This document shows, piece after piece, positions 4,610 through 53,005 of a DNA stretch of 64,000 nt. The notes below the pieces were generated by a model that did not search any database, was not told the origin of the DNA, and saw nothing but the letters and a program-made list of their open reading frames with translations. The stretch comes from Deltaproteobacteria bacterium (lineage in GTDB: Bacteria > Desulfobacterota > GWC2-55-46). Position numbers and translations under genes: made by a program. The stretch covers positions 50,215 to 114,214 of the forward strand of contig JABTVA010000008.1 in the NCBI GenBank assembly GCA_015075075.1, in the 5' to 3' direction. Within the stretch, counting starts at the first letter, position 1. Each line of letters opens with the position of its first letter.

Positions 4610-4635
4610 TTCCGGTCCTGATCATCGGGGCCAGC

Positions 4636-6441: not shown

Positions 6442-6671
6442 ATGAAGATTGTTGAAGGTTTTCAGGAGTTTACCACCGGGGCCCGCCGGTTTGCAAGCCG
6501 ATATTACCTTTGTCCGGCGCCCCTGGCCTCAAGGTCCGAAATGTATCTGGAGGCAGAAGTGTCGCCGAGCTCAAGCGCCTTTCTCATGCTGGCGTATGAT
6601 CTCTCGAAATTGCCGAGGTGCATATATACCTTGCCGAGGTCAATGTGCGCGGACGGGTCCGAGGGGTCGAG
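6371..6671. repeat. Near-identical ~300-bp segmental duplication, copy A (gene 3 end / intergenic / gene 2 start)
   Basis: Direct sequence comparison. Positions 6380-6612 match 8170-8402 exactly, with scattered mismatches beyond. Confidence 0.9.
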
Positions 6672-8228: not shown

Positions 8229-8461
8229 ATGAAGATTGTTGAAGGTTTTCAGGAGTTTACCACCGGGGCCCGCCGGTTTGCAAGCCGATATTACCTTTGT
8301 CCGGCGCCCCTGGCCTCAAGGTCCGAAATGTATCTGGAGGCAGAAGTGTCGCCGAGCTCAAGCGCCTTTCTCATGCTGGCGTATGATCTTTCGAAATTGC
8401 CGAGGTGCATATATACCTTGCCGAGGTCTATGTGCGCCGAAGGGTCTCCGGGGTCGAGCTC
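8161..8461. repeat. Near-identical ~300-bp segmental duplication, copy B (gene 4 end / intergenic / gene 3 start)
   Basis: See copy A. Includes the identical 62-bp intergenic spacer. Confidence 0.9.
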
Positions 8462-15921: not shown

Positions 15922-16055
15922 TGTTGAAAAGCACTTCCTGGACTTTTTCAATCACGGCTTGGCCGGAATAATCCGTCCAAGCCCCGCAAAATGCTCGACC
16001 TTGGACAGTCTTCGCAATTTGGCATCCATCCGTGGATTGCATATCAGGATGTTTT
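15922..16055. repeat. Structured repeat element, family E (copy 1), abutting the stop codon of the ATPase gene
   Basis: About 135 bp with nested inverted repeats (TTGAAAAAGTCC...GGACTTTTTCAA; GGCTTGG...CCAAGCC; GTTGAAAAA...TTTTTCAAC). A second copy at 52580 is about 85% identical. Confidence 0.75.
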
Positions 16056-16213
16056 TCAACACCCTGATAAAGTCCTGATGAGGCCTGCTCCTTTTCGGGG
16101 CTTTCCCTTTTTCCTGCTATCCTGATTTCCATGAGCCAGGCTTTTTTTGGTTTGCGGAAAAGTTCCACTTGTGATATATTCCGGCAATCCACTATGTGAG
16201 CGAGTTCAGGCGG

Positions 16214-16252
16214 GGGCCTTCCCCGAAGGTACCCCCTCGTTTTTAATGCTTC
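16214..16252 (+). terminator. Possible intrinsic terminator
   Basis: GC-rich imperfect hairpin 'GGGGGCCTT...AAGGTACCCCC' followed by 'TCGTTTTTA'. Confidence 0.3.
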
Positions 16253-17469: not shown

Positions 17470-18200
17470 GAAATTCTCGAAAAAGGAGCTTGGAGATATC
17501 CTCGACCTCATCTAGATGTCCGTTGCGTGCCGGGCAGACGAGGACATCCTGAGATTGACAGGGAAAATAAAGGACCTCGTTTGCGCGGACCAGGGTGTAT
17601 GCGGGCTGGGCGGCATCGTTTCAGGCGAGCTCTCGAATATCATCAAGATAGTGAACTATGACTACTCTACCGAGTGGCTTTCCATGTATGCCGCCGAAAA
17701 ACTGTACAAGAACGATCCGATAATCAGGTACAATTACGAGCGCTTCGAGACGCATTTCTGGTCTGAGGCGATCGAGGCTTTCAATGACGAGTCCAGCAGG
17801 GATTTCATGAGGAAGGCTTCTGATTTCGGACTTGTCCACGGCGTGGCAAGCGGCATGCGCGACGGCGGCTCGAAGGGTTCGATATTTTCGTTCTCAAGCT
17901 CCAAGAACCGTTTCAGTAAACACCACAAGGACGTCCTGGACATACTCACCCCGCACGTCCACATGGCGCTGGCGAGGGTCGGAGGCGTCAGGAGCGAAAA
18001 GAGCGGTCCTCAGATCTCGGAAAGGGAAAAAGAGGTCTTGAACTGGATGAAGGAAGGCAAGACCAACTGGGAGATTTCGGTCATTGAACATCAGCGAAAG
18101 GACGGTCAAGTTCCACGTCCAGAATATAGAAAGAAAGCTCAATGCCGTAAATAAGGCTCGTACGATTGCGATAGCGATGGATATCGGGCTGGTAATGTAA
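17459..18200 (+). pseudogene. LuxR-family regulator (autoinducer-binding + LuxR HTH) interrupted by an in-frame TAG (17513-17515) and a -1 frameshift near 18095
   Basis: Paralog of the upstream gene (MDYRKFSKKELGDILDLI*MSVACRADED... vs MPFEDFSKKELISILEIIESAQKCTGADQ...). It has 'YSTEWLSMYAAEKLYKNDPIIRY'. In the -1 frame, 'NISERTVKFHVQNIERKLNAVNKARTIAIAMDIGLVM*' is the LuxR-type HTH. Confidence 0.55.
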
Positions 18201-18239
18201 GATCCATGCAAGGAGCTCGGTCTTCTGTCCGCGCATAGT

Positions 18240-18789
18240 TCCTCGAAAGACCCCAGTCAAGCTCTATCGCGCCCGCGACTACGCCGTCCGGCATCGTGAC
18301 GAAATCCGCCAGCTGCGTTACCGGGAAGCCGCAGAGCCCTCAAAAGCCTGTAGTATCGCTTGTCCACTACCATGACCATGCGCCTTACGCCTCTCAGGGC
18401 GCTCCAATTGTATATGGCCTTGTAAATCAAGCGGGAGATGAGCGACGCGTTCTTCTCCGCTCCTCTTTACGCAGAGCCGGGTGATTTCAGGCCATGTCCG
18501 TCTTTGCGGAACTCGCCCTCGCCGGCATCATGCAGGCGAACTCCTTTCCACCATGAACGGATAAGGATGCGTTATGAGCCTGGCATGTCCGAGAATGCTC
18601 ATGTCCATCCTGAACACGCCGATGCATTCCGCAAACCTGTCATACTCGTCGGTCTCCATCCCGTCCTGCGAGCACCGCACCCACTTGAGTTCCGGGCGAA
18701 GACCTCATGGCGGAGCTAAGCGCCGCCTCGAATTCCTCAGAGCGGAGATGGTCTTTATTGAACCCGCTATCCTCGAATATCAGTTCCAT
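18240..18789 (-). pseudogene. LuxI-family acyl-homoserine-lactone synthase, multiply frameshifted (not in ORF track)
   Basis: Minus-strand translation across three frames gives MELIFEDSGFNKDHLRSEEFEAA | LRHEVFAR | ELKWV..ETDEYDRFAECIGVF...HARLITHPYPF | TWPEITRLCV | LIYKAIYNWSALRGVRRMVMVVDKRYYRLLRAL | PVTQLADFVTMPDGVVAGAIELD. This is colinear with the LuxI blocks LRYQVFKQRLEWDL..ESDEYD, WELSRFA, LFEAIYKHAV..VTVTSTAIERFLKRI. The 3' boundary is uncertain. Confidence 0.55.
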
Positions 18790-19008
18790 GTCCCTTTTAG
18801 CAGGAAGGGGCGGGGTCACGTAACTGGCAGGCATATCAGTTCACTTTATGCGGCGTAGTTGTAAAATAAAAAATTTAATTCCGGGGACCTGGCCAAAGTG
18901 CAGTGGGACCGGGCGGGTAAATGATGTATAATGCTGCCGTTCCGATTTGAGAGAGGGCAGGGCAAAACCCGGTACTTAAGGCGTGCAGGCATCCTGAAAG
19001 GAGTTTGT

Positions 19009-19719
19009 ATGGACGCTGACTACAGGAGGTGCCGTGAGACCGCTTTCAAGGCGCTCATTGGTCCTCATACGGACTCGCGGAGTTCGGCAGGAACGTCTTC
19101 TGGAGCTAATGGTATCGTACGCAGCGCCCAGGAAAGACGCCCGGACGTCTCCGACAGGCTCCTCAGGAGGTTCAGGGGTTTAAAGGCGCCTCGACGCATC
19201 CCGGAAGAGCTTAAGGCCGAGGGCTCGCTGGGCGACGACGGCATAGTGCTCGTCAAGCTATTCAAGGAGATGGCGGGCGCCTATCTTAAGGAGCGGACGG
19301 TCGGGCAGGATGCCGAGGCCGGCATGGCGGACCTCCTCGACTACCTTTGCCTTACGCTATCCGGCGAGAGGGTCGAGAAGTTCTTAGCGGTATACATGGG
19401 GTTCAGGAAAGAGATAATCTCCATAGACGTTCTGCACGAGGGCACCATAAACCAGACCGTCGTGTATCCGAGGAAGGCCATTGAGATGGCCTTCAGGCAT
19501 AACGCCAGGTCGGTCATCTTCGTCCACAACCACCCGAGCGGCGACCCCACGCCGTCGAGCCAGGACAGGCAGCTTACAAGGGTCCTGGACAGGGCCGCTT
19601 CCGCGGTCGACATACTGGTCCTTGACCACCTGATAATCGGCAGGGACAGGCACTTCAGCGCCAGGGAGAACGGCTGGTCGATGGGGCTTCCCTTCAACTG
19701 CATCGCCGCAAGCCCCTGA
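19009..19719 (+). CDS. radC: RadC-family JAB/MPN domain protein
   Basis: C-terminal 'HNHPSGDPTPSSQD' JAMM motif. RBS AAAGGAG precedes the ATG at 19009. Confidence 0.8.
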   Translation: MDADYRRCRETAFKALIGPHTDSRSSAGTSSGANGIVRSAQERRPDVSDRLLRRFRGLKAPRRIPEELKAEGSLGDDGIVLVKLFKEMAGAYLKERTVGQDAEAGMADLLDYLCLTLSGERVEKFLAVYMGFRKEIISIDVLHEGTINQTVVYPRKAIEMAFRHNARSVIFVHNHPSGDPTPSSQDRQLTRVLDRAASAVDILVLDHLIIGRDRHFSARENGWSMGLPFNCIAASP

Positions 19720-19737
19720 TGTCGACTTAAAAGGCCT

Positions 19738-19880
19738 TTGTTGTCATTGCGGAGCTTTGGCTCGAAGCAATCTCAAATGCCCGATATTCCAAAAAATGAG
19801 AGTGCTTCCCGCCACGCTTCGCTCGCGGCTTCGGCTCACACGCTCGCAATGACGAATATGCGAATCAGTCAGAGCTTCCT
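19738..19880. mobile_element. MITE-like element, family B (degenerate copy)
   Basis: Shares the core 'TTGTCATTGC...GATTGCTTCCCGCCACGCTTCGCTCGCGGCTTCGGCTCACACGCTCGCAATGACGAA' with the copy at 22226. The right TIR is degenerate ('GAATCAGTCAGAGCTTCC'). Confidence 0.65.
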
Positions 19881-22114: not shown

Positions 22115-22225
22115 TTTCCTTTTCCTGGAGAAATGTCGCGCTTCTGATTGACGGGTTGAGGTCTTTCCAGGCTGCTATCCCGTTCCGGGCAGCCTGGCAT
22201 CCCGCCGCGGGAATGGGCTGGTTTA

Positions 22226-22398
22226 GGGAAGGTCTGATTAATTCTGTTTTCTGTTGTCATTGCTTAGGAGCTAAAGCTACGAAGCAATCTCTAAGTGCTT
22301 GATTTTCCAAAAGATAAGATTGCTTCCCGCCACGCTTCGCTCGCGGCTTCGGCTCACACGCTCGCAATGACGAACACATTGAATTAATCAGAGCTTCC
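22226..22398. mobile_element. MITE-like element, family B (TIR GGAAG(G/C)TCTGATTAATTC)
   Basis: About 18-bp TIRs enclose an internal hairpin (ATTGCTTAGGAGC / GCTACGAAGCAAT). It lies in the same orientation as the copy at 19738; the two flank the kinase gene. Confidence 0.7.
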
Positions 22399-24032: not shown

Positions 24033-24300
24033 GGCTGCTGAAAAAGCCCAATCTGCTGTGTCGTCTTCAAAGTTGGACACTCCGGCGTACAAGAAAAGTA
24101 CGCCTCATTCCTAAGGAAGCTCTGATTAATTCAATGTGTCGTCATTGCGAGCGAAGTTGAAACAATCTTATCTTTGGAAAATCAAGCATTAGAGATTGCT
24201 TCGGAGCTAAAGCTCCTAAGCAATGACAACAGAAAACAGAATTAATCAGACCTTCCCTAATTTTTCGACTCCTTGCATCTTGAGCTTTTTGAGCAGCCTG
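24033..24300. mobile_element. MITE family C copy interrupted by a nested family B MITE (24120-24251)
   Basis: Left part 24033-24119 and right part 24252-24300 match the intact C copies. The inserted B element carries TIRs 'GGAAGCTCTGATTAATTC / GAATTAATCAGACCTTCC'. Confidence 0.75.
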
Positions 24301-24380
24301 AATGTGGGTTTTTGAAGTAATCTTTTAAAGCCCAAGCCGGTTCTGATTTCTGTCCGTCCATCAAGGCCGGGAGGCCTGCC

Positions 24381-25131: not shown

Positions 25132-26000
25132 TCAATGCGACGTCTTCCTCAGCACGCCGCCGTTACAGAGCTTCAAGGCCCTCAGGAGCTCTATAGTCCT
25201 CCGAGCGGCCTCCTCTGGCCTCCGGGGGTCGTAGAGGTCCACTGTAATGAAGCCCCGGTACGAGCGCCTTTCGAATAAAGAGAAGAGCCCCTTCAGGTCC
25301 ATCTCGGCGGCATCAGGGATGAGGCGCAGGCGTTTTCTGCCTGAGAGGTCCTCGATATGGACGTGGAATATCCTGCCGTCAAGGAGGTTTACCGTGGACT
25401 CCGGCTCCTCGCCGAGGGCAAAGCTGTGCCCCAGGTCAAGGTTGGCGCCCAGGAAGCGCGAGCCTATCTCGCTTATGAGGCACGATAGCTCGGAGCCGGA
25501 CTCGATAAGTAGCCCCGGCTCGTACTCAAGGCCTATGAAGACCCTCTTCTCCTCGGCGTAGCGCATGATGTCCTTAAGCGAGCCCTTCAGGAACTCTATC
25601 CCCTCCTCGGGGGTCGTCTCGGGCTGTATCGGCCCGGAGGTAACGCTTACATTGGATGAGCCGAGCGCCTTCGCGAGGTCTATGCACTTTTTGGTGTAGT
25701 CAACCCGCCATGCCCTTACGCCGGGGTCGGGGTCCGCGAGGCACGGCTCGAAGAGCGGCTCGTTGGCCCCCGATTCGTAGTACCCCCGGACCGTGTTCGC
25801 GTTTATGTTCGAGACCTGGATGCCGGTCCGCGCAAGCACCGCCTTGAGCCTCTTGAGCTCGGGCTCCTTAAGGCTGTGCATGTATAGGTGGGGGATGTCC
25901 GCGAGTATCTCGACCCCCTCGTACCCTGCGGCGGCTATCTTTTCCACGGCCTCGAATACGGAGTAGTCTGTGAACGCGTTAGTGCTGAAGGAGAACCTCA
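25132..26000 (-). CDS. Sugar phosphate isomerase/epimerase (xylose-isomerase-like TIM barrel)
   Basis: 289 aa starting 'MRFSFSTNAFTDYSVFEAVEKIAAAGYEGVEI'. Its start ATG overlaps the stop of the upstream ino1-like gene (ATGA). The longer 517-aa ORF in the track is an artificial upstream extension. Confidence 0.7.
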
Positions 26001-27206
26001 TGTGTGCACCCCGCTCTCTTTTGCTTTTTCCGCGTACCTGAAGAGCATCTCGGCCTGCTTGAAATAACGGTGTTCGTCCACGCCGACCGGCGCCTTGAAG
26101 AAAGAGGCGAGGTGGGTCATGGGGCCGCCCTCGCCCCTCCTTTTCGAGAGATCTGAAAGCCTCACGAGGTCGAGTATGAGAGGGGCCGCGAGCAGGGAAT
26201 CGTACCCCTGCCAGATGAACTGCATGGTCATCCGCGAGCCGAGGAAACCCCTGAAGTGGATGAAGTTCCACGCGGTCTTCACATCGTCGAGCGAGGGGAC
26301 GAAGTCGATGCGGACCCTTGAGTGGGGGGCGTATCCGAGGACCTTGTGGAGAATGCCGTCCTTGCTGATTATCTTCGATTCCCTGTTCTCCGGGTCGCTT
26401 AAGACCCTTCCGTCCATGTTCCCCAGGAGATTGACCCCCTCCCAGCTCAGCACCTCGAGGTTCCTGTAGAGGAACATCGGCGCGAGGGCGGACTTTACGA
26501 GCGTTTCCCCGGTCTTCCCGTCGTTTCCCATGACCGGCACGCCGTTTTTCCGGGCAAGCTCGACGAGGGCGGGTACAAGGGCGTTCGAGGGCGTGAAGTT
26601 TATGTAAGGGCAGCCCTCGAGAATGGCGGCGTAGGCGTAGATGGCCGATGCCCGGACCTCTTCCGAACGGTCCTCCATGACGCATTCCTCGAAGCCGTCC
26701 GGTGTTTCATGCGAGGGCCTCGCCTCAAGGGGCGGCTCGGTCGAGGCGAGGTTCACGACGACCACGCAGTCGAGCGAATTCTTTTCCCTGAAACCGGCTA
26801 TGTCCTTCCTGAGCTTCAGCGCCTGCGCTTCGAGGGTCATGGCCCGCTCTGTCGCGGTATCAGCCGAAAGGAGCTCTATCGTCCTCCCGCAGTTGGTGGT
26901 TATGCCGTGGCAGATGTTCGGCGAGACCTCGATGAGGCCGCCTTCGATGGCGGAGAGGAGCTCGGATGGAAGCCCGGCGGACTTGAAAAGGGAGACGGCG
27001 CTCTCGAGAGGCGAGCCGGTCCTTATGTCCCATCCGCCGAAGGCCATATCCGCGGGCTCCGCGAGCGCGAGACCATTGAAGTGCGGAAGCTCCGTGACCA
27101 TGCCGGTCCTGTCGGAAAGCCCCTTTTTAAGGGCCAGGGCCCCGGCGATGACGGCGGTGGCTATATAGCCCGAGACGCCTATGAAGAACACCCCTGTCTT
27201 ACCCAC
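25998..27206 (-). CDS. myo-Inositol-1-phosphate synthase family (archaeal/bacterial short type)
   Basis: 402 aa. Has an N-terminal Rossmann segment 'GVFFIGVSGYIATAVIAG' and the conserved MIPS catalytic core. Confidence 0.75.
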   Translation of the reverse strand: MGKTGVFFIGVSGYIATAVIAGALALKKGLSDRTGMVTELPHFNGLALAEPADMAFGGWDIRTGSPLESAVSLFKSAGLPSELLSAIEGGLIEVSPNICHGITTNCGRTIELLSADTATERAMTLEAQALKLRKDIAGFREKNSLDCVVVVNLASTEPPLEARPSHETPDGFEECVMEDRSEEVRASAIYAYAAILEGCPYINFTPSNALVPALVELARKNGVPVMGNDGKTGETLVKSALAPMFLYRNLEVLSWEGVNLLGNMDGRVLSDPENRESKIISKDGILHKVLGYAPHSRVRIDFVPSLDDVKTAWNFIHFRGFLGSRMTMQFIWQGYDSLLAAPLILDLVRLSDLSKRRGEGGPMTHLASFFKAPVGVDEHRYFKQAEMLFRYAEKAKESGVHT

Positions 27207-27579
27207 GGCAAGGGCGCGCCTTCAGGACAGGACCAGCGGTGACGGCCAGCATAAGAAATCGTACCATCCCGGCCTCCTCTTTTTTCAGGCACCGGGCCCG
27301 TTTTTCCAGGGCCCCTTCCGCCTTTGGGACCAGGCAGGGCCGGTCATTTTTTCTGTGGGGTTTTAAGGATCGCGTCCGGTAAAGTGCCGGACCGGACGCA
27401 GTCTTCCTGGGCTGGCTGCCGGATAAGGCCCGGCTCGGTTACCCTTATTGGATTCTATGGCAAGAACGGTGTTTGTCAAGAAGCCGGGAATGCATTCTGC
27501 AGCGTGGAAAGGATGGCGAGCGCGGGGCCTCTACGGGCGCCGCCGCGCTTGAGGGCCAGGAGTGACCGGGCCTGAAGAC

Positions 27580-27759
27580 TCAGGCGTTCCCGCCTTTTTC
27601 GAGGTTCTTTATCATGTCCGTGAACATGGTGCCCCGTATCGTGGTCTGCTCTCCGCACTTGGGGCATTTTATGACTGCGCCGTCCTTCAATTCGCGCGCC
27701 TTCTTCTTGAAGACGTTCTCGCATACAGGGCAGGTTATGTCTATTATTACGTCGGCCAT
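27580..27759 (-). CDS. Small zinc-ribbon protein
   Basis: 59 aa 'MADVIIDITCPVCENVFKK...IKCPKCGE'. RBS GAAGGGAG precedes the ATG. Confidence 0.5.
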   Translation of the reverse strand: MADVIIDITCPVCENVFKKKARELKDGAVIKCPKCGEQTTIRGTMFTDMIKNLEKGGNA

Positions 27760-27906
27760 TTCAGGGGCTCCCTTCAAACGATTTCAGCGTTATTTTTTTT
27801 ACCATAAAAGGGGGCGGGAGGCAACAGCGGTACGGGCTCCCGGCAACGTCCCCGGGACGTGAGCGGGTTTAACATGTCAAAGAAGAATTCAAAGCCGATT
27901 ACATGT

Positions 27907-27935
27907 TTGACACCCTGGCGAGATGGTGTTAGCAT
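27907..27935 (+). promoter_or_regulatory. Sigma70-like promoter (TTGACA-N17-TAGCAT) for the glycosylation gene cluster
   Basis: Perfect -35 with 17-bp spacing to a 4/6 -10, about 45 bp upstream of the 27981 ORF. Confidence 0.4.
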
Positions 27936-27980
27936 TTCGGAATCCTGAATACAATCGGTGCCCTCTGGGGTTGACGAGAC

Positions 27981-29543
27981 GTGTTTTGCCTGACCCGAAA
28001 GACGAGTCCGCGGGGACTGGCCGTAAAGGCGCTCTTCGCATTGAGCCTCCTCCTCGTAGCGTTCGCGGGCGCAAAGGGCTTTTACGGGCCGGTAAGCGAG
28101 ATGCACGGCTTCCGGCAGGCCCAGACCGCCATATCCGCAAGCTACATCCTCAATGGCGGGCCGTGGCTTGCCTACGAGACCCCGGTCCTGGGGCCGCCCT
28201 GGCCGATACCGTTCGAGTTTCCTCTTTACCAGTGGGCGGTCGCGCTTGCCGCCAAGACCGGCCTTTTTCCGCTCGTCCAGTCCGGCAGACTGGTAAGCAT
28301 ACTTTTTTTCCTTTCGTCACTCGTCCCGCTCTACGGGATACTGCGGGTTCTCAATCTCGGCAAAAACCAGGCCCTGGCAATCCTCTCCCTCTATTGCGTA
28401 AGCCCTCAGTACCTCTTCTGGTCGCGCACCCTCATGATAGAGTCTGCCGCCCTGGCCCTCGCGCTTTATTATATATGGTCCGTTATGCTCTATTCGGAAG
28501 GGCGGGCTGCGAGCGCCGGTAAATGGGCGCTACTGGGTTTCGCGGCGGCCATAGGGGCGCTTGCCGGGATGGTCAAGGTGACCACCTTCGGGGCTTTCTG
28601 GGCCGCGGCGCTCGTTGTGCTCGGAATCCGCGTCCTTAGCGACTTAAGGAAAGGCCATGCTTTTCTCGGGAACTGGCGCCTCCTTCTATTCGGCGCCATA
28701 GTCCCGGTAATGGCAGTATACCTCTGGACCTCATACGCCGATTCCAATAAGGCGCTTAACCCATTCGGGGCGCACCTGACCTCTTCAGCGCTCAAGGCCT
28801 GGAACTTCGGGACATTGAAGCAGAGGCTCTCGGTCGGGACTTACGAGACGTTCTGCCTGAGGGACCTGACCAACATCATGGGTTCGTATCTGCTTATCGT
28901 CCCGGCGATTATTGCGGGCCTTTTTTGCGGGCTGGAAAGGCGGAAGACGGCGCTTATCCTCTCGGCCCTCTTTGCCATGCCGTTTTTCGTATTCACGAAT
29001 CTTTATTTCGTGCACGATTATTATGCTTACGCAAACGGCGTTTTCCTCCTGGCCGCAATCGGAGTTGTGTGCGCCGGCCTAACGGAGTCGGGCAGCCGCC
29101 TTAAATGGACCTCAGGCGTCCTCCTTTTCTCGCTTGTATACGCCTCTTCCGCATACCACTACGCCGCCAGGTACTGGCCTGTCCAGGGGACGGGCTACAG
29201 CTATTCTGATATGAAGGGGGATTTCGAGGCTTACACGCATGCCGACGACGTGATAATCGCATTTGGAGCCGACTGGTCGTCAGAGGCCCCGTTCTACCTC
29301 GAGAGGCGCGGCCTCATGATGGCGGATTGGATGAGAAGACGGACCCCAGGCATGGGTCTCGGGGACATATCCCGGAACCTTGCCGGATACAGGGCAGGTG
29401 CCGTCCTTTTCTGCGGAAAAGCCAGGAGCGACAAGTCTTTTCAGGAGGAGGCGCTCTCCGGGCTCGGCCTGGCCGGATACAAAAAGGTTGTGGAATATGA
29501 GCGCTGCAAGGTTTATTATATGCCGGGACCGGACAACGCGTGA
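27981..29543 (+). CDS. GT-C superfamily membrane glycosyltransferase-like protein (ArnT/PMT-like)
   Basis: 520 aa with about 12 TM helices and a large first periplasmic loop. It sits in a cluster with UDP-sugar-modifying enzymes and a DPM1-like GT2. Confidence 0.6.
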   Translation: MFCLTRKTSPRGLAVKALFALSLLLVAFAGAKGFYGPVSEMHGFRQAQTAISASYILNGGPWLAYETPVLGPPWPIPFEFPLYQWAVALAAKTGLFPLVQSGRLVSILFFLSSLVPLYGILRVLNLGKNQALAILSLYCVSPQYLFWSRTLMIESAALALALYYIWSVMLYSEGRAASAGKWALLGFAAAIGALAGMVKVTTFGAFWAAALVVLGIRVLSDLRKGHAFLGNWRLLLFGAIVPVMAVYLWTSYADSNKALNPFGAHLTSSALKAWNFGTLKQRLSVGTYETFCLRDLTNIMGSYLLIVPAIIAGLFCGLERRKTALILSALFAMPFFVFTNLYFVHDYYAYANGVFLLAAIGVVCAGLTESGSRLKWTSGVLLFSLVYASSAYHYAARYWPVQGTGYSYSDMKGDFEAYTHADDVIIAFGADWSSEAPFYLERRGLMMADWMRRRTPGMGLGDISRNLAGYRAGAVLFCGKARSDKSFQEEALSGLGLAGYKKVVEYERCKVYYMPGPDNA

Positions 29544-29589
29544 AACCGGCCGGCCTCTGCCTTTGATTACGGAATTCGAGGAGTCCTGA

Positions 29590-30789
29590 ATGGAACGAAA
29601 AGGGAGCGGACACGATATCTGCATAGTCGGCGGGCTCGGGCACGTGGGCCTGCCGCTCGGCATAGCCTTTGCCAGGGCCGGACGGAAGGTAGTCCTCTAT
29701 GACATAGACAAGAAGGCGAGCGAGCTGGTCCTCGGCGGCAAGCTCCCCTTCAAGGAGGCAGGCGGCGAGGAGGCGCTGAAGCCCGTCCTCGGCAAAACGC
29801 TCTTCATATCCAACGACAAAGGTTCGATCTCTGAGAGCCATTTCGTCATTATAGTAATCGGCACCCCGGTCGACGAGCACCTGAACCCCAAGTTCACGAT
29901 ATTCAAGAAGTTCTTTGACGATATAGCCGCGCACGTAAGGGACGGCCAGCATGTAATCCTACGGAGCACCGTTTACCCTGGCACGACGGAGCTCGTCGAG
30001 AAGCTCCTCAGGGAAGCGGGGAAGAAGGTCAGGGTCTCCTACTGCCCGGAGAGGATAGCGCAGGGGAACGCACTCGAGGAGCTTAAGACCCTGCCGCAGA
30101 TAGTCTCGTCATTCGACGAGGAGGCCCGGGCCGAGGCAGGCGGGCTCTTCGGCGACATAGCCCTGGAGATAATACGCCTTTCCCCGCCGGAAGCGGAGCT
30201 TGCGAAGCTGTTTACGAACGTCTGGAGGTACATGCAGTTCGCCATCTCCAACCAGTTCTACCAGGTGGCGACCCAGTACGGCCTCGATTTCTACAGGATA
30301 TACGACGCGATCACGCACAAGTACCCGCGCGCGAAGAGCTTCCCCTCGGCCGGGTTCGCCGCAGGGCCGTGCCTGTTCAAGGACACCATGCAGCTCGCCG
30401 CCTTCAACAACAACAATTTCTTCATGGGCCACGCGGCCATGCTCATAAACGAGGGCCTCCCGAACTTCATCGTGCAGAGGATAAAGGAGAGGCACGGCCT
30501 CAAGGACAAGACCGTCGGGGTGCTCGGCATGGCGTTCAAGGCGAATAACGACGACAAGCGCGAGTCCCTCTCCTACAAGCTCAAGAAGATCCTCGAGGTC
30601 GAGGCGAGGGAGGTCGTCTGCTCGGACGTGTACATCAAGGAGGACGGGTTCGTATCCGTCGACGAGCTCGTAAGGAGGTCAGACATTGTGATACTCGGCA
30701 CGCCCCACCGCGAGTACAAGGGGCTCGACATATCCGGCAGGATGCTCGTTGACATCTGGAACTTTTTCGGAAAGGGAGGGCTTTTCTGA
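29590..30789 (+). CDS. Nucleotide-sugar (UDP-glucose/UDP-ManNAc) 6-dehydrogenase family
   Basis: 399 aa. N-terminal NAD fold 'ICIVGGLGHVGLPLG' and the catalytic Cys region 'AGFAAGPCLFKD'. Confidence 0.8.
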   Translation: MERKGSGHDICIVGGLGHVGLPLGIAFARAGRKVVLYDIDKKASELVLGGKLPFKEAGGEEALKPVLGKTLFISNDKGSISESHFVIIVIGTPVDEHLNPKFTIFKKFFDDIAAHVRDGQHVILRSTVYPGTTELVEKLLREAGKKVRVSYCPERIAQGNALEELKTLPQIVSSFDEEARAEAGGLFGDIALEIIRLSPPEAELAKLFTNVWRYMQFAISNQFYQVATQYGLDFYRIYDAITHKYPRAKSFPSAGFAAGPCLFKDTMQLAAFNNNNFFMGHAAMLINEGLPNFIVQRIKERHGLKDKTVGVLGMAFKANNDDKRESLSYKLKKILEVEAREVVCSDVYIKEDGFVSVDELVRRSDIVILGTPHREYKGLDISGRMLVDIWNFFGKGGLF

Positions 30790-31808
30790 TGAGGATACTC
30801 GTTACCGGCGCCGCCGGTTTCATAGCGGGCTACGTGGTGGAGGAGCTCCTTAACAAGGGCCACGAGGTAGTGGGCATAGACAACTACTCCAAGTACGGCA
30901 AGGTGGAGAAGAGCTACGACAGCCACCCGAAGTACGCCTTCCGGGAGGGCGACGCAAAGGACACGGCCCTCATGAAGGAGCTAATATCCGACTGCGACCA
31001 TGTGCTGGCGGGCGCCGCCATGATAGGCGGCATTTCCTATTTCCACGAGTTCGCCTACGACCTCCTGGCCGAGAACGAGAGGATAGCGGCCTCCACGTTC
31101 GACGCCGCCATATGGGCGCACAAGCACCGGAAATTGAAGAAGATAAACGTCCTTTCCTCCTCGATGGTCTTCGAGAACTCGGATACCTTCCCCACGCCGG
31201 AAGGAGAGCAGTTGAGGTGCCCGCCGCCTCTTTCGACCTACGGCTTCCAGAAGCTCGCCTGCGAATACTTCGCAAGGGGCGCGAACGAGCAGTACGGCCT
31301 TCCTTACACCATCATAAGGCCTTTCAACTGCGTGGGCACAGGCGAGAAGAGGGCCCTTTCTGACAGGGAGATAATGTCGGGGAACGTGAGCATGGCAATG
31401 AGCCACGTCGTCCCTGACCTCGCGCAGAAGATATTGAAAGGGCAGGACCCGCTCCACATACTCGGCGATGGAAGACAGGTCCGCCATTATACGTACGGAG
31501 GCGATTTGGCGGAGGGCATAAGGCTCTGCATAGAGAGCGAAAAGGCAATAAACGACGACTTCAACCTCTCGACACCGGTCTCTACGAGCGTCATCGAGCT
31601 TGCCGAGCTTATCTGGAAGAAGATAAAGGGAGACGTCCCGTTCAGGTACACATCGGACCCGCCCTTCAGGTACGACATAAGGAAAAGGGTCCCTTCGGTG
31701 GAGAAGGCGAAAAGGGTCTTGGGCTTCGAGGCGAAGACCTCGTTATCAGAGGCCCTGGACGAGATAATACCGTGGATAGAGAAGCAGATAGCCGTGGGCG
31801 GGATATAG
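30789..31808 (+). CDS. NAD-dependent epimerase/dehydratase (extended SDR; UDP-glucuronate 4-epimerase/decarboxylase-like)
   Basis: 'GAAGFIAGYV' glycine motif and the 'YGFQK' catalytic YxxxK. The start overlaps the upstream stop (ATGA). Confidence 0.75.
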   Translation: MRILVTGAAGFIAGYVVEELLNKGHEVVGIDNYSKYGKVEKSYDSHPKYAFREGDAKDTALMKELISDCDHVLAGAAMIGGISYFHEFAYDLLAENERIAASTFDAAIWAHKHRKLKKINVLSSSMVFENSDTFPTPEGEQLRCPPPLSTYGFQKLACEYFARGANEQYGLPYTIIRPFNCVGTGEKRALSDREIMSGNVSMAMSHVVPDLAQKILKGQDPLHILGDGRQVRHYTYGGDLAEGIRLCIESEKAINDDFNLSTPVSTSVIELAELIWKKIKGDVPFRYTSDPPFRYDIRKRVPSVEKAKRVLGFEAKTSLSEALDEIIPWIEKQIAVGGI

Positions 31809-31810
31809 CG

Positions 31811-31958
31811 GGCTGCTGAAAAAGCCCAATCTGCTGTGTCGTCTTCAAAATTCGTCATTGCAGCGTACAAAAAAGTACGCCTCATTCCTCATTTTTCGAC
31901 TCCTTGCATCTTGGACTTTTTGAGCAGCCTGGATGTGATTTTTGAGTTTTTCAGCAAT
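31811..31958. mobile_element. MITE family C (intact copy)
   Basis: TIR GGCTGCTGAAAAAG...CTTTTTGAGCAGCC, plus the conserved tail GAGTTTTTCAGCAATCT. Confidence 0.75.
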
Positions 31959-31985
31959 CTTTAGATAGCCGTGGGCGGGATATAG

Positions 31986-32124
31986 GCAACCCTGAAAATT
32001 GATCTTTTCCCCGGACTCTGCGTCAGTCCGGGAATAAAAATGCTCACATATTATCCATATATGCTCCGCTTTTTATTCCCGGCCTTCCGGGAAAAGCGGG
32101 AAATCTCTAATTTTTAAGGTTGCC
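31986..32124. mobile_element. MITE family D (TIR GGCAACCYCTAAA / TTTARAGGTTGCC)
   Basis: About 140 bp. Core 'TTTTCCCCGGACTCTGCG...GGGAATAAAAATGCTCACATATT...ATATGCTCCGCTTTTTATTCCCGGCCTTCCGGGAAAAGCGGGAAA'. Four copies in the window. Confidence 0.75.
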
Positions 32125-32140
32125 TACATGGTATCCAGAG

Positions 32141-32199
32141 CCTTGCATCTTGGACTTTTTGAGCAGCCTGGATGTGGTTTTGAGTTTTTCAGCAATCTG
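32141..32199. mobile_element. Partial MITE family C (3' half)
   Basis: Matches the 3' terminal ~60 bp of C copies. Confidence 0.6.
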
Positions 32200-32218
32200 T
32201 TAGAAGGCAGGGTGTCAT

Positions 32219-32965
32219 TTGAAGAGCCGTAAGAGGCAGGGCGGGATATCCATCGTCATCCCCGTGTATAACGAGGGCGGCAACATCAGGGCGGCCCTGG
32301 CCGAGATAAAGGCCAAGGTCAGGACCCCGCACAATGTCCTCATAGTCTACGATTTCGAGGAGGACAATACCCTCCCGGTCGTAAGGGAGATGGCGGCCAG
32401 GGGCGAGGTCGCCGGGCTCGCCCTTGTAAGGAACAAGTACGGCAGGGGCGTCTTGAACGCCATAAAGACCGGTTTCGAGAGCGCGGATAGGGAGGCGGTC
32501 CTGGTCGTAATGGCCGACCTTTCCGACGACCTCGCGGTGGTCGACGGGATGTACGCGAAACTAAAGGCCGGCTACGGCGTCGTCTGCGGCTCGCGCTACA
32601 TGAAAGGCGGAAGGCAGATAGGCGGCCCCTTCCTCAAGAAGGCCCTTTCAAGGACAGCCGGGCTTACCCTTCACCTCATCGCCGGCATCCCCACCCACGA
32701 CGCCACGAACAGCTTCAAGATGTATTCGAAAGAGCTCCTTGATAACATTGAAATAGAAAGCACCGGCGGCTTCGAGCTCGGGATGGAACTGGTCATAAAG
32801 GCCCATTTCAAGGGCTACGGCGTAACCGAGGTCCCTTCCACCTGGAAAGACAGGGTGGAGGGCGAGTCCAGGTTCATGCTCATGAAATGGCTCCCGAGAT
32901 ACCTGCACTGGTACTTCTTCGCCTTCAGGAACGCGGCCTTCGGGAAGAGGCCGGGGAAGGCGTAA
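32219..32965 (+). CDS. GT2 polyprenyl-phosphate glycosyltransferase (DPM1/ArnC/GtrB-like)
   Basis: 'ISIVIPVYNEGGNI' start motif, a DxD region 'VVMADLSDD', and a C-terminal amphipathic region. The track ORF uses a TTG start; the true start is uncertain. Confidence 0.75.
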   Translation: MKSRKRQGGISIVIPVYNEGGNIRAALAEIKAKVRTPHNVLIVYDFEEDNTLPVVREMAARGEVAGLALVRNKYGRGVLNAIKTGFESADREAVLVVMADLSDDLAVVDGMYAKLKAGYGVVCGSRYMKGGRQIGGPFLKKALSRTAGLTLHLIAGIPTHDATNSFKMYSKELLDNIEIESTGGFELGMELVIKAHFKGYGVTEVPSTWKDRVEGESRFMLMKWLPRYLHWYFFAFRNAAFGKRPGKA

Positions 32966-32974
32966 CCGGGGCCG

Positions 32975-34204
32975 ATGGCAATAGGCGTCCGGGATATCGC
33001 CTGGAGGGCCCTCGTATTCGCCGCGCTCGCGGCTCCACCGGTCTATTTCTTTTCGATAATCCATAAATACGCAGCTAACGTCCCCTACGGGGACGACTAT
33101 TCCGCTATCCTCGATTTCCTTTTAAGATACCAGGACGCCGACGGCGCTCTCCAGAAGCTCGGAATGCTCTTCGCCCAGCATAACGAGCACAGGATAGCGT
33201 TCGGCAATCTCGCGACCGTCGCCATGTATAAGCTCACCGGCACGGTTGACTTCCGGTCCATGATATTCTTCGGGAACGCCGCGCTCCTGGGGCTCGTCCT
33301 GGTATTCTACCGCATGTTCCATGCGTCCGGGAGAAAGCCCCTGTACTTCATCCCCGTGGTCTTATTCCTTTTCCAGTTCCAGTTCGGGCATACGATATTC
33401 TGGGCCAGGCATCGGTCTCGAACTTCTACGTGCTCCTCTTCACTTTCTTCGCTTCTCGTGCTGGAGAGGGGGCGGCCTTTTACATGGCGGCCTTTCTCCT
33501 GGCCGCGCTCGCGTCGGTCACGCAGGAGCGGCATATTCGCCTCGTCTCGTGCGCGCTGCTCCCTGCACTGAAAAGAGACTTAGGGACTGCCGCCTGGGCG
33601 CGCTCTCAGCGTTGTGCTGGCCCTGTTTCGGTTTTACGAGAAGCCACCTGAGCACCCGAGCATGGCCGAGGCTGTTTTTGAAGAGCCGGTCAATACCATC
33701 AGATATTTCTTCACGCTCGCAGGCGCGTCTTTCCCGTTCCCGTTTTTGGCGGGCCTCGTATTCGCCGCCCTTTTCATCGTCCTTACCTTAAAGGGCCATT
33801 ACCGGAAAAACCCGGCGCTCTACTGCGGCATCGTCTATGTCTTCCTTACGGTTGCCGCGACCTCGCTCGCACGTTCTGGCCTTGGAATAGAAGGGGCGCT
33901 CTCGTCGAGGTACAAGATAGTCTCGGCCCTTTTCCCCGTCCTCCTGTACATGGCTTTTTTCGAGCACAAGACGCCCTGGAAGCGGATATTCTTCCCGGCG
34001 GTCCTTGCCGGGGCGCTCGTATTCAATATCCATGCGAATATCATGGAGACGCACAAGGCCCGGAACCTGTCTTATTTGCTGACCGAAGGCATGAAATGGT
34101 GGGCGACCGGGGCGCCGTCGCTAAAGTACCCCGACCAGGAAACGGCCAACCGGATACTCGTCGAGTCCATCAAGCGCGGCATTTACAAGCCGGGTTTCAG
34201 GTAA
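32975..34204 (+). CDS. Integral membrane protein (possible acceptor-side glycosyltransferase), with two compensating frameshifts between ~33400 and ~33600
   Basis: The N-part 32975-33400 and C-part 33614-34204 are in the same frame and hydrophobic. The stretch between reads as membrane-like sequence only in the -1 frame ('...NFYVLLFTFFASRAGEGAAFYMAAFLLAALASV...'). Confidence 0.5.
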
Positions 34205-34291
34205 AAAGCGCATTCCGTATTTTCCCTTGCTTCTTTTTTATCTGTCGAATTTCCCTAAAGCCCCCTCCTCTCATTTCCGATAAGGTACCGT

Positions 34292-35347
34292 ATGATAATA
34301 GCGGGTTCAGACATACAGATGGGCGCTGCCCGTTCCCGGGCCGAGCACAGGGAGACAAGGAACGAGCTGAAGGTCTGGCTTGGCCCCAGGCCCCCTGAAG
34401 GCGGAAGGGGAGCGGCCCGTCCGCTTCCGGCGCGCGACGTCCTCAACATCTCCGGCGAGGCCAGGGCCAGGTTCGAGTCCGTCAAGAACAAGTCCAGGTC
34501 CCTCTACAAAGGCATGGAGAGGAAGATAGATATCGAGGGTGGCGTGGACCACCAGACCTTCATAAGGAAGCTCCTCATAGAGGCGCTCACGGGCGCGAAG
34601 ATAAATATAAAGGAACTGGTCACGAAAGCGCCTGAAAAGACCGAAGCGGAAGAACCGCAAACCCGCGAGGCCGGCAGGGGCGGCGAATGGGGCATGTCCT
34701 ACGAATCAAGCACCGTCTCCGCGAGCTTCGAGGCCGTCACCATCAGCGCCTCAGGCACCATAAAGACAGCGGACGGGGCCGAGATAGGCTTCTCGCTCGA
34801 GCTTGTGATGGCCAGGGCCTCGATAACCATGACCGACACTACCGTAAGGGCCGGTAACGCGGTCGACCCGCTTGTCATAAACTACGGGGGCAAGGCCGCG
34901 GACCTTACCTCCATGCGCTTCTCGTTCGACCTCGACGCAGACGGCAACCAGGAGCTTATCCCCTTTGCCGGACACGGCTCCGGGTTCCTGGCTCTGGATA
35001 AGAACGGCGACGGGGTAATAAACGACGGCCGGGAGCTCTTCGGCCCCACGACGGGCCACGGCTTCAGGGAGCTTCTGCAATACGACTCCGACGGGAACAA
35101 CTGGATAGACGAGGCCGACCCTGTATTCAAGGACCTCCGCGTCTGGACCAAGGACGCGCCCGGTAACGACACCTTCCTAAGCCTTGCTGAACTCGGCATC
35201 GGGGCCATTTACCTGGGCTATGCCGAAGGGGACTTCGACGTCAGGGACCAGGGCGATAACCCCCTCGGACAGGTAAGGCGTACCGGCCTCTTTGTCTCTG
35301 AAGACCTGACACCCGGCACTGTCCAGCAGATAGACCTCATAATCTGA
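34292..35347 (+). CDS. Hypothetical protein with three EF-hand-like DxDxDG calcium-binding loops
   Basis: 351 aa with no signal peptide. C-terminal half carries 'DLDADGNQE', 'DKNGDGVINDGRE' and 'DSDGNNWIDEADP'. Confidence 0.5.
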   Translation: MIIAGSDIQMGAARSRAEHRETRNELKVWLGPRPPEGGRGAARPLPARDVLNISGEARARFESVKNKSRSLYKGMERKIDIEGGVDHQTFIRKLLIEALTGAKINIKELVTKAPEKTEAEEPQTREAGRGGEWGMSYESSTVSASFEAVTISASGTIKTADGAEIGFSLELVMARASITMTDTTVRAGNAVDPLVINYGGKAADLTSMRFSFDLDADGNQELIPFAGHGSGFLALDKNGDGVINDGRELFGPTTGHGFRELLQYDSDGNNWIDEADPVFKDLRVWTKDAPGNDTFLSLAELGIGAIYLGYAEGDFDVRDQGDNPLGQVRRTGLFVSEDLTPGTVQQIDLII

Positions 35348-35349
35348 CA

Positions 35350-35495
35350 GGCTGCTCAAAACGCCCTTGAATGCGTCGTCTTCAAATTGGCAACTCCGGC
35401 GTACAGGAAAGTACGACTCATTCCTCATTTTTCGACCCCTTGCATCTTGGACTTTTTGAGCAGCCTGAACGTGCCATGAGTTTTTCAGCAACCTG
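35350..35495. mobile_element. MITE family C
   Basis: TIRs GGCTGCTCAAAA...CTTTTTGAGCAGCC and the tail GAGTTTTTCAGCAACCT. Confidence 0.7.
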
Positions 35496-37320: not shown

Positions 37321-37689
37321 GCCTTGCGCTTGACAAGCGGCTCCAAGCCGGGTAGGGTGGACACAGCCCACCATTTCTCTGAGGTACAGGGCGACAGAAG
37401 AATCTCGTATTCAAGCCTCGTCGAAAAAGACCTTATAACGCGCTGCCGCGCTCTTTTTGGGCATGAGGCTCCGCGCCCTTTCCGCCTCCATCCTCCGGGC
37501 TCGGCCCTTAAGTCGCTCGGCCTTCGGCCTCGCTCCTAACAGCCCCGCCTCGCCCGCCCCGCCCCCATCCCCATGTTCGCTCCGCCTCATGCCCCCGGGG
37601 TTGTTTAAAAACAAACCAGCGCCTTCCTTGAGCTTGACAAGCGGCTCATGGAAATGCAATCATCATCCTGGAAATAGAAATGACATGTC

Positions 37690-37845
37690 CTGGTCAAGGG
37701 AATCCCGTGATCCGCCTGGGTGCGGAGAATCGGGAACGGACCCGCCACTGTGAGCGGATACGAAACCCGCACGAGCCACTGGCCTTAAGGCCGGGAAGGC
37801 GCGGGGAGTAGGTTGTTAATCCGCAAGTCAGGAGACCTGCCAGGA
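37690..37845 (+). promoter_or_regulatory. Cobalamin (AdoCbl) riboswitch
   Basis: 'AAGGGAATCCCGTGATCCGCCTGGGTGCGGAGAATCGGGAACGGACCCGCCACTGTGAGCGG' matches the 5' consensus, including the GCCACTG core. The B12 box 'AAGTCAGGAGACCTGCC' lies at 37825-37841. Confidence 0.8.
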
Positions 37846-37911
37846 TATGCCTCACGGATCTTCGATGGTAAAGAAGGTGAGGGCGGTTGCACTGGTTTTT
37901 CGAGTCTCCGC

Positions 37912-39067: not shown

Positions 39068-39351
39068 GCAACCTCTAAAAATTGCTATTTTCCCCGGACT
39101 CTGCGTAGTGCGGGAATAAAAATGCTCACATATTCAAAATATATGCTCCGCTTTTTATTCCCGCCTTTCCGGGAAAAGCGGGAAAAATCTCTAAGGAACC
39201 TCTGATTAATTCATGTGTTCGTCATTGCGAGCGAAGCGAAGCAATCTTATCTTTTGGAAAATCAAGCGCTTAGAGATTGCTTCGGAGCTGAAGCTCCGCA
39301 ACGACAAGAAACGAGAATTAATCAGAGCTTCTCTAATTTTTAGAGGTCGCC
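39068..39351. mobile_element. MITE family D with a nested family B MITE (39200-39327)
   Basis: Left D TIR 'GCAACCTCTAAAAATT' at 39068 and right D TIR 'TTTTTAGAGGTCGCC' at 39337-39351. The B element 'CTCTGATTAATTC...GAATTAATCAGAG' is inserted just before the right TIR. Confidence 0.75.
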
Positions 39352-52715: not shown

Positions 52716-52849
52716 TCGACACCCTGTTAGAGGGGGCGAGCTTAAGCGCGCCTTGACTCTTACGCATCCTCCGTGTTAACATTTTTTACCGAAGGGCCGG
52801 TTTCTCTCTCAATATAGGCCCCGGGTATTAGATTTCCTAAAATCAAATA

Positions 52850-53005
52850 GAAACGATCTCCGAGCCATCCTGCCTAAAGCCGGTCCTTTTCATGGCCGCG
52901 CAACGGGGGGTGGCCGATAGGGCCCTGCTGGAAACGGTTTGGCCTCCCCACTGGAAAGGAGATTGACAGTGCCAACCCCTTTCCGTGGCGGTTGGTTTTT
53001 TTTTG
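52850..53005 (+). promoter_or_regulatory. Molybdenum-cofactor (Moco) riboswitch-like leader with terminator
   Basis: 'CTCCGAGCCATCCTGCC..AAAGCCGG...GGAAACGG...GGCCTCCCCACTGGAAAGGAGA' matches hallmark blocks of the Moco RNA motif. It is followed by hairpin 'CCAACC...GGTTGG' plus T9, immediately upstream of modABC. Confidence 0.55.

Follow-up and report, generated by a model that had tools for sequence, protein, structure and literature searches.

A putative polyprenyl-phosphate-sugar glycosylation locus with a conserved dehydrogenase–SDR–GT2 cassette in a Deltaproteobacteria bacterium

The charge of lipid A, the serotypes of O-antigens, the arabinan of cell walls and the O-mannosylation of proteins are all shaped by extracytoplasmic glycosylation with polyprenyl-phosphate-linked sugars, for which, to our knowledge, only a handful of donor sugars and GT-C glycosyltransferase families have been characterized. 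Do five adjacent genes of a Deltaproteobacteria bacterium (assembly GCA_015075075.1, contig JABTVA010000008.1) encode a system of this sort and, if so, what would it make and who would use it? The genes lie at positions 27907–34204 of a 64,000-nt stretch, hereafter the window, and a reading of the letters without database searches (the sequence-only reading) had assigned them to an Arn/Rgt-like periplasmic glycosylation module. The computational tests proposed for that earlier reading all support it. What is shown by computation is the folds and family affinities of the proteins, the fusions and linkage of their genes, and the conservation of the promoter. We judge it probable (about 0.65) that the locus carries out extracytoplasmic glycosylation via a lipid-linked monosaccharide, with the second of its two membrane proteins (MP2) as the cognate GT-C transferase and the first (MP1) as an accessory one.

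The locus and its donor enzymes

Open reading frames (ORFs) and Pfam matches were surveyed over positions 27200–35400. All five ORFs were found on the + strand at the positions described previously, confirming a co-directional cluster that includes a short-chain dehydrogenase/reductase (SDR):

27907..27935, + strand: promoter-like site (TTGACA, 17-nt spacer, TG-extended TAGCAT), ~45 nt before the first gene
27981..29543, + strand: MP1, polytopic membrane protein of 520 aa with a GT-C fold in its predicted structure
29590..30789, + strand: NDP-sugar 6-dehydrogenase of 399 aa (PF03721, PF00984 and PF03720, the UDPG_MGDP_dh domains)
30789..31808, + strand: extended SDR of 339 aa (PF01370, 2e-38)
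32219..32965, + strand: GT2 of the DPM1/GtrB/ArnC type, 248 aa, TTG start (PF00535, 5e-17)
32975..34204, + strand: MP2, compact membrane protein with a GT-C fold; its intact form has 415 aa, and it is broken in the window

The cluster had been credited with a promoter of its own, and the predicted site matches 10 of the 12 consensus positions, plus the TG extension, in a consensus scan. Both hexamers are kept in three related genomes, L001 (84% identity), L007 (a complete 2.75-Mb Thermodesulfobacteriota genome) and L008 (UBA5799), with a differing spacer sequence; in L008 the same promoter sits directly before the dehydrogenase gene, and synteny with L001 ends at 27904, just upstream of the site. 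The gap between the MP1 and dehydrogenase genes is 46 nt and that from the GT2 stop to the MP2 start 9 nt, with a 410-nt spacer between SDR and GT2. The dehydrogenase and SDR genes meet at TGATG with a 1-nt overlap, not at the ATGA that had been read there.

The translated dehydrogenase contains the catalytic-cysteine motif GPCLFKD and passes TIGR03026, a subfamily model for nucleotide-sugar dehydrogenases (250.1 bits against a cut-off of 189.8). Its closest solved structures are 3vtf and 4r16 (~1e-39), followed by Cap5O. It scores below the cut-offs of the Ugd model PRK15057 (48 bits for a cut-off of 757), TuaD (105 for 700) and AglM (116 for 670); models of UDP-ManNAc dehydrogenases score higher than the Ugd models, also below cut-off, and E. 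coli-type Ugd is more distant from the enzyme than are the UDP-ManNAc and archaeal-type dehydrogenases. The earlier designation as a UDP-sugar 6-dehydrogenase stands at family level only. From its family affinity, the enzyme would make a nucleotide-activated uronic acid.

Among solved structures the SDR is closest to GalE-like epimerases (4zrm, 3.5e-29), with UXS and ArnA lower; UXS1 matches at ~3e-17 and the C-terminal domain of ArnA is 26% identical. The ArnA-type catalytic residues (T432-S433-E434, R619) were sought in the SDR and the set is incomplete: in a BLASTP alignment ArnA T432-S433-E434 stands opposite S-S-M, so that the catalytic Glu is replaced by Met. The motifs SSSMVFE and YGFQK are both invariant across 26 SDR orthologs. 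By the established SDR mechanism, the missing acid speaks for the chemistry of an epimerase and against that of a decarboxylase or 4,6-dehydratase. Of the epimerase/decarboxylase proposed by the sequence-only reading, the epimerase side is thus retained; judging from these residues the SDR appears to be epimerase-type, and a decarboxylated sugar is disfavoured. The source names of SDR homologs are generic (epimerase, oxidoreductase) and do not resolve the substrate.

The GT2 falls among polyprenyl-phosphate sugar synthases in both the PDB and the NCBIfam comparison, in agreement with its earlier classification as DPM1/ArnC-type. All seven of its PDB sequence matches are polyprenyl-phosphate glycosyltransferases, among them PfDPMS (5mlz, 6.9e-21), GtrB sll0501 and ArnC, and its five top NCBIfam models are dolichyl-phosphate-hexose transferase, PgfS, AglJ, PpgS and ArnC, all under their cut-offs. 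Identity to E. coli ArnC is 23% over the catalytic domain (E 3e-11). We regard the GT2 as a putative polyprenyl-phosphate sugar synthase; it is the sole homolog of its kind found in the window.

Conservation of these three genes was assessed in metagenomes, where more than 570 stretches encode the signature SDR. A census was taken of 80 loci recovered via the SDR and kept (L019–L098); each denominator below counts those whose flank is long enough. The gene directly before the SDR is the dehydrogenase in 50 of 56 loci, and the one directly after it is a GT2 in 44 of 47. In 20 of 37, an ORF for a membrane protein of 300 aa or more, with 6 or more transmembrane (TM) helices, starts within 1.2 kb past the GT2; six of these 20 belong to the MP2 family and the rest are diverse, including one that looks YfhO-like and several that carry D/E motifs after the first helix. 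At five further loci, MP2 relatives lie upstream of the dehydrogenase.

Compared with the window, the SDR has a median identity of 73%, the dehydrogenase and the GT2 have 55% each, and MP2 relatives are at 25–45%. The SDR is 70–87% identical across the 80 loci and nearly always exactly 339 aa long; more than 120 SDR clusters at 76–87% identity are likewise nearly all exactly 339 aa, under source names such as Thermodesulfobacteriota, Nitrospirae, Thermodesulfovibrionales, Dissulfurispiraceae, Anaerolineales and Saganbacteria. That the SDR is more conserved than its partners suggests that constraint is unusually strong or that the cassette is often transferred horizontally.

Closer relatives retain more of the locus. 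L001, L007 and L002 (the public assembly GCA_048500075.1, 99.6% identical to the window in a 21.5-kb comparison) have the gene order of the window, with MP1 first behind the conserved promoter. L008 has the same promoter, the cassette, two copies of MP2 and no MP1, and a distant metagenome contig (L006) carries a dehydrogenase–SDR–GT2–MP2 block with an MP1 homolog ~3 kb upstream. A genome scan with a 12-sequence MP2 alignment returned six loci, the distant ones without the cassette. The conserved unit is dehydrogenase–SDR–GT2; it occurs in many phyla, and its GT-C partners are interchangeable. Grouping of the dehydrogenase and SDR with capsule or O-antigen pathways had been named as an observation that would speak against the module; the two are instead tightly linked to the GT2 and not to Leloir genes. 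Literature searches returned no description of a dehydrogenase–SDR–GT2 cassette.

Two membrane proteins and a broken reading frame

The second membrane protein had been described as frameshifted. Comparison with L002 shows that 18 single bases are gone from the window within 225 bp of the MP2 gene (33407–33631). All 62 indel columns between the two assemblies are confined to this stretch and to two others (18082–19802 and 24138–24188), and in 57 of the 62 the base is missing from the window and not from L002; five of the 16 mismatches fall outside the three stretches. In L002, positions 14995–16242 form an intact MP2 ORF of 415 aa that is identical to P0121, whose cluster comprises six member sequences on two contigs. 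Because the indels against a 99.6%-identical assembly all lie in three short clusters, the break is attributed to local consensus error, and it is probably an assembly artefact with no biological counterpart. The large membrane protein of the sequence-only reading hence stands and its simple frameshift does not, the defect being 18 bases missing from the window assembly. A true MP2 pseudogene was considered and rejected on the same clustering; the apparent pseudogene serves as a practical warning. The other two stretches, 18082–19802 and 24138–24188, hold 40 and 4 indel columns, nearly all of them bases lost from the window, and the ORFs there are likely corrupted by the same kind of assembly error. 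The L002 counterpart of 18082–19802 holds genes for a LuxI-type autoinducer synthase and for RadC, along with the final part of a LuxR-type regulator gene.

The AlphaFold2 (AF2) model of intact MP2 (P0121, from an 80-sequence alignment) has a pLDDT of 95.9. Foldseek E-values are weak, and the matches with a probability near 1 are GT-C enzymes only. AftB, Pmt2, ALG3, ALG12, GPI mannosyltransferase I and PimE are among its best structural relatives. GT-C enzymes bear a catalytic Asp just after the first TM helix, TM1 (PMC11127046). D40 never varies among the 80 MP2 sequences and D41 reaches at least 90% conservation; the two lie 8–9 residues past the helix at residues 3–32 (TM1). By its fold and the placement of this Asp the second membrane protein, too, is GT-C.

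The MP2 family is large (6852 cluster representatives at 50% identity, E ≤ 1e-3), and no Pfam or NCBIfam family model matched MP2 or its diverse relatives; two members match Wzy_C weakly (best E 8.5e-4). A search of the MP2-family profile against the sequences of solved structures found nothing, and hhalign gave 0.2% against E. coli ArnT. MP2 is retained and tandemly duplicated in L001, L007 and L008 and single in the window and L002, and its distant relatives sit in large glycan clusters. MP2 probably acts as the cognate transferase for the cassette. The duplicates occupy L001:14760–17486, L007:8669–11263 and L008:10001–12636, the paralogs being ~62–67% identical to the window MP2. Two further MP2 homologs, P0136 (761 aa) and P0195 (657 aa), have N-terminal extensions that gave no Pfam match when scanned and are unlike the window GT2; such extensions of MP1 and MP2 homologs span 205–250 aa.

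MP1 was compared by structure with PDB entries, and the GT-C transferase proposed at this position is supported by its fold. A GT-C enzyme was expected to have a polytopic membrane domain of 7–13 TM helices, with a small helical module outside the cytoplasm following TM1, and to match solved members in fold. The AF2 model (65-sequence alignment; pLDDT 94.6, pTM 0.93) has an ArnT-like architecture of a membrane domain followed by a C-terminal alpha/beta domain of ~110 aa. The top Foldseek match in the PDB is ArnT (5f15; E 3e-8, TM 0.62/0.60), and the top 40 are GT-C enzymes throughout, including AglB, PglB, STT3, ALG9/12, DPY19, AftA/B/D, Emb, Pmt and PimE. At the sequence level, MP1 itself matched no Pfam or NCBIfam model; among its 65 homologs, 20 match PMT_2 weakly, 11 match PMT weakly and three are fused to a GT2. 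The profile–profile comparison with E. coli ArnT (hhalign) gave a probability of 2%, that is, no homology. The first periplasmic loop of ArnT carries the signature motifs RYA and YFEKP (PMC5377068). At comparable places MP1 has FRQ and PFEFP, with the essential Lys replaced by Phe, and the conserved residues in its loop after TM1 are E79 (invariant) and E66 (at least 90%), together with F44, R45, Q46 and Q48.

Searching the sequences of solved structures with the MP1-family profile yielded spurious ATP13A2 matches only; as sequence searches against solved structures gave nothing usable for either protein, fold comparison alone is informative for MP1 and MP2. Profile–profile comparison detected no significant homology between MP1 and MP2.

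The fusions tie MP1 to GT2 enzymes of the cassette type. In P0064, P0077 and P0090, a GT2 domain that matches residues 3–232 of the window GT2 (E ~1e-32) precedes the MP1 domain, which places the MP1 N-terminus in the cytoplasm and its first loop outside. A GT2 of ~250 aa also adjoins MP1 homologs at two loci (L005 and L017) and is fused to one at a third (L016). From the model, MP1 is a putative periplasmic glycosyltransferase using a polyprenyl-phosphate sugar, and it is accessory to the core cassette, being absent from one close relative. Five members of the MP1 group (P0005, P0009, P0011, P0015 and P0017; 712–726 aa) carry N-terminal extensions with no Pfam match in the precomputed annotation and no similarity to the window GT2.

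A pathway and its alternatives

From these results we infer the catalytic steps, the nature of the sugar, the sharing of its donor by MP1 and the acceptor. The dehydrogenase would oxidize C6 of a cytoplasmic UDP-hexose or UDP-N-acetylhexosamine to a uronic acid, which the SDR would epimerize, most likely at C4, with neither decarboxylation nor dehydration; the product would probably be an epimer of a hexuronate or of an N-acetylhexosaminuronate. The soluble, DPM1-like GT2 would then load it onto polyprenyl (undecaprenyl) phosphate at the inner membrane face, a factor encoded outside the cluster would flip the lipid-linked sugar, and the two GT-C-fold enzymes would pass it to acceptors on the outer face. 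MP2 would be the cognate transferase here and MP1 an accessory second one, probably for another acceptor or site. Candidate acceptors are the lipid A or core of lipopolysaccharide, another envelope glycan or lipid, and protein. The logic set out by the sequence-only reading (UDP-uronate, lipid carrier, transfer by GT-C) survives overall; its decarboxylated branch is disfavoured, and no flippase gene was found in the cluster.

A number of observations weigh against this reading. The dehydrogenase passes no equivalog cut-off that would assign it a substrate. The C-terminal TM anchor of GtrB, ArnC and PfDPMS was not found in the GT2 (the peak 19-residue hydropathy is 1.39), and short NCBIfam models do exist (Halo dolichyl-phosphate-hexose transferase, 213 positions; PpgS, 226). 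Where DPMS, GtrB and ArnC carry DAD the GT2 has MAD, and in the alignment with PfDPMS only the second Asp is kept. No flippase of the GtrA, SMR or MATE type was detected among the ORFs and Pfam matches surveyed, and no invariant Asp occurs in the first external loop of MP1 in the family alignment. The 410-nt spacer with its strong hairpins means that co-transcription of SDR and GT2 is not assured, and 17 of the 37 census loci have no large membrane ORF directly after the GT2. Finally, MP1 is gone from the otherwise syntenic L008, has a homolog in just one of the 80 cassette loci (L050), and may draw on another donor.

These last points favour the alternative that survives best, in which MP2 alone belongs to the cassette pathway and MP1 is an independent GT-C enzyme with a different donor that merely sits behind the same promoter. 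MP1 homologs elsewhere neighbour other GT2s, GDP-Man-dehydratase-type SDRs and methyltransferases, as this alternative would have it. On the other side, MP1 is the leading gene after the conserved promoter, with 46 nt between it and the dehydrogenase gene, in an order shared by the window and three relatives; the GT2 domains fused to its homologs match the window GT2 over its full length; and no second GT2 of this kind was found in the window. Several Rgt GT-C enzymes, moreover, share one donor (PMC7663294). We hold an independent MP1 to be a minority prospect.

Unlikely, in our estimation, is a protein acceptor for the same chemistry, that is, PMT/TMTC-like O-glycosylation of periplasmic or surface proteins, with the TPR proteins encoded upstream as possible sharers of the donor. 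It is suggested by the PMT and PMT_2 matches of MP1 homologs and by the four tandem TPR membrane proteins themselves, each with an FDFVNWDD-type motif after TM1, a homolog of which adjoins the cassette in L026. No sequence feature points to an acceptor, however; the best fold match of MP1 is the lipid-A-modifying ArnT; the best matches of MP2 (AftB, ALG3, ALG12, PimE) act mostly on lipid-linked or polysaccharide acceptors; and the TPR genes are 18–25 kb away on the opposite strand.

An Arn-like pentose pathway, in which the SDR would oxidatively decarboxylate UDP-glucuronate in the manner of ArnA or UXS and the lipid would carry xylose, an arabinose derivative or another pentose, is very improbable. 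The gene order does resemble Ugd–ArnA–ArnC–ArnT, and the SDR has the ArnA and UXS1 matches given above; epimerases match it better than either, the Glu of the T-S-E triad is replaced by Met within the invariant SSSMVFE, and the cluster contains no aminotransferase, formyltransferase, deformylase or ArnE/F. A cytoplasmic capsule, O-antigen or exopolysaccharide locus, with UDP-uronate serving a Leloir GT2 and Wzy/WaaL-like proteins or transporters in the membrane, is just as improbable. Loci of that kind do often contain GT2 domains and genes for uronic acids, and MP2 relatives show weak Wzy_C matches and glycan-cluster contexts. Against it, neither an initiating phosphoglycosyltransferase nor Wzx, Wzz or export genes were found in the cluster, the PDB and best NCBIfam matches of the GT2 are polyprenyl-phosphate synthases, MP1 and MP2 resemble classical GT-C transferases and not transporters, and the GT2–GT-C fusions suit a pair of donor synthase and transferase.

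Extracytoplasmic glycosylation via a lipid-linked monosaccharide thus remains our preferred reading. A broader version of it is tentative, and we would sooner doubt it than assume it: the triad may be a widespread, horizontally shared cassette that makes an undescribed polyprenyl-phosphate sugar, delivered by interchangeable GT-C enzymes of at least two families (those of MP1 and MP2) to envelope targets in many anaerobic phyla. Such a sugar would not be galacturonic acid (GalA), 4-amino-4-deoxy-L-arabinose (Ara4N), Glc, Man or a pentofuranose; it might be an N-acetylhexosaminuronic acid, or an unusual uronate epimer formed by the SSSMVFE-type SDR.

The locus is worth following as a compact donor cassette with a conserved gene order, and as the site of two sizeable GT-C families without a Pfam or NCBIfam model; biochemical work could start directly from the natural GT2–GT-C fusions. 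With the sugar and the acceptor identified, a further envelope modification would be on record for Thermodesulfobacteriota, Nitrospirota-type and other little-studied phyla, and new CAZy GT families could follow.

Surroundings of the locus and comparison with known systems

The 410-nt spacer between SDR and GT2 had been read as holding two miniature inverted-repeat transposable elements (MITEs). Both are real, and a partial third copy accompanies them:

31809..31962, no strand assigned: MITE-like element A, with 19-nt terminal inverted repeats GGCTGCTGAAAAAGCCCAA and TTGGACTTTTTGAGCAGCC; repeat family D3
31986..32125, no strand assigned: MITE-like element B, with imperfect terminal inverted repeats of 26–32 nt; inverted repeat I1
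32141..32204, no strand assigned: partial copy of element A (right end), 95% identical to 31902–31965, just before the GT2 start

Element A is flanked by a 23-nt direct duplication (31786–31808 = 31963–31985) that contains the SDR stop codon. Element B is present at the same site in L001, where element A is missing; as the SDR stop of L001 directly abuts B, B is the older element and the insertion of A is specific to the lineage of the window. Predicted hairpins reach −44.9 kcal/mol (z −4.1) for A and −51.6 kcal/mol (z −6.8) for B, and in an Rfam scan neither the cluster nor the MITEs matched a known RNA. Other copies of A lie at 35350–35494 (81%) and at 24033–24112 plus 24256–24315, and of B at 39068–39194 (89%), 59926–60066 (82%) and 56551–56781. 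The copy at 24033–24315 is itself split by a ~143-nt insert, and another short repeat pair, in inverted orientation, lies at ~22223–22326 and 24157–24260.

Divergent from the cluster, on the − strand, are genes for myo-inositol-1-phosphate synthase (MIPS; 25998–27206) and a xylose-isomerase-like TIM-barrel protein (25132–26001); a 517-aa ORF listed at 25132–26685 is an over-extension. The pair stands beside the cluster in four of four close relatives and in 0 of the 80 other cassette loci, and genes for MIPS, the TIM-barrel protein, DUF72, the SPM protein and SpoU are found near 0 of the 80. An inositol-lipid acceptor, considered on account of the MIPS operon and the likeness of MP2 to PimE and GPI mannosyltransferase, is unsupported. 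Between the divergent operons, a 59-aa zinc-ribbon-like protein with two CxxC pairs (27580–27759, − strand) is kept in all close relatives, where it gives faint DUF7836 matches. Downstream of MP2, a 351-aa protein (34292–35347) has PF26745 (SPM) in the precomputed annotation only; in each of the close relatives its gene comes after MP2, whether single or duplicated, and elsewhere it is unlinked to the cassette, and the element A copy at 35350–35494 sits right after its stop.

Farther off, positions 3098–10090 (− strand) encode the four tandem paralogous TPR membrane proteins (503–601 aa, C-terminal TPR repeats). Their motif, directly after the first helix, recalls GT-C enzymes of the TMTC/PMT clan, and they could be further users of a lipid-linked sugar; profile–profile comparison of a TPR protein with MP1 detected no significant homology. 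A cobalamin riboswitch (37674–37858, 108 bits) precedes cbi genes, and a molybdenum cofactor (Moco)/tungsten riboswitch (52846–52977, 58.5 bits) lies further downstream.

Among known systems, the Arn/Rgt parallel drawn by the sequence-only reading holds for the shared logic and fails as membership of the Arn/ArnT group, there being no ArnT homology, ArnA Glu, ArnB, ArnD or ArnE/F. In the Rgt system, LpsL is a UDP-glucuronate 4-epimerase, RgtE a bactoprenyl-phosphate-GalA synthase and RgtA–D/F are GT-C enzymes that transfer GalA to lipid A and core (PMC7663294). Compared by documented roles, the likeness is that a nucleotide-sugar uronate is made and epimerized, transferred by a GT2 to polyprenyl phosphate and used by more than one periplasmic GT-C enzyme. 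The present locus differs in gathering its genes, dehydrogenase included, in one compact cluster, in its GT2 without a membrane anchor and in the lack of ArnT-family motifs from both GT-C proteins. We know of no flippase gene assigned in the Rgt system either.

The Arn system, which places Ara4N on lipid A, offers a dehydrogenase, an SDR, ArnC (23% identical to the GT2, as noted) and a GT-C enzyme, ArnT, that is the closest solved structure to MP1. With the E. coli arn locus as the gene-content reference, the SDR here differs by lacking the catalytic Glu of ArnA, and positions 27200–35400 hold no ArnB aminotransferase, ArnA formyltransferase domain, ArnD deformylase or ArnE/F flippase. ArnT itself (GT83) has no sequence homology to the MP1 profile and carries RYA/YFEKP in place of FRQ/PFEFP (PMC5377068).

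Three-component systems are represented by GtrA/GtrB/GtrC in O-antigen glucosylation and by an undecaprenyl-phosphate-pentofuranose synthase with a MATE flippase and a GT-C enzyme of GT136 (PMC11127046). They share with the present locus a polyprenyl-monophosphate donor, a GT-C enzyme and an optional auxiliary epimerase, and likewise combine a conserved donor module with GT-C partners of low sequence similarity (PMC11127046). They differ in that their donor synthase is a membrane-anchored GtrB or PRPP-dependent, whereas the GT2 here has no TM helix; in addition, the sugar here would pass through a 6-dehydrogenase, no flippase gene is present in the cluster, and there are two GT-C proteins, both outside Pfam and NCBIfam families.

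The dolichyl- and polyprenyl-phosphate-mannose systems (PfDPMS, eukaryotic DPM1, mycobacterial Ppm1 with PimE, ALG3/9/12 and PMT) supply the top solved relative of the GT2, PfDPMS, and several structural relatives of MP2 (Pmt2, ALG3, ALG12, GPI mannosyltransferase I and PimE). Eukaryotic DPM1, like the GT2, is a catalytic subunit without a TM helix. The differences are that a linked dehydrogenase–SDR pair implies a uronic or epimerized sugar and not mannose, and that MP2 has no sequence-level homology to these GT-C families. Taken with these systems, the locus most likely represents a known kind of pathway that is built from uncharacterized parts.

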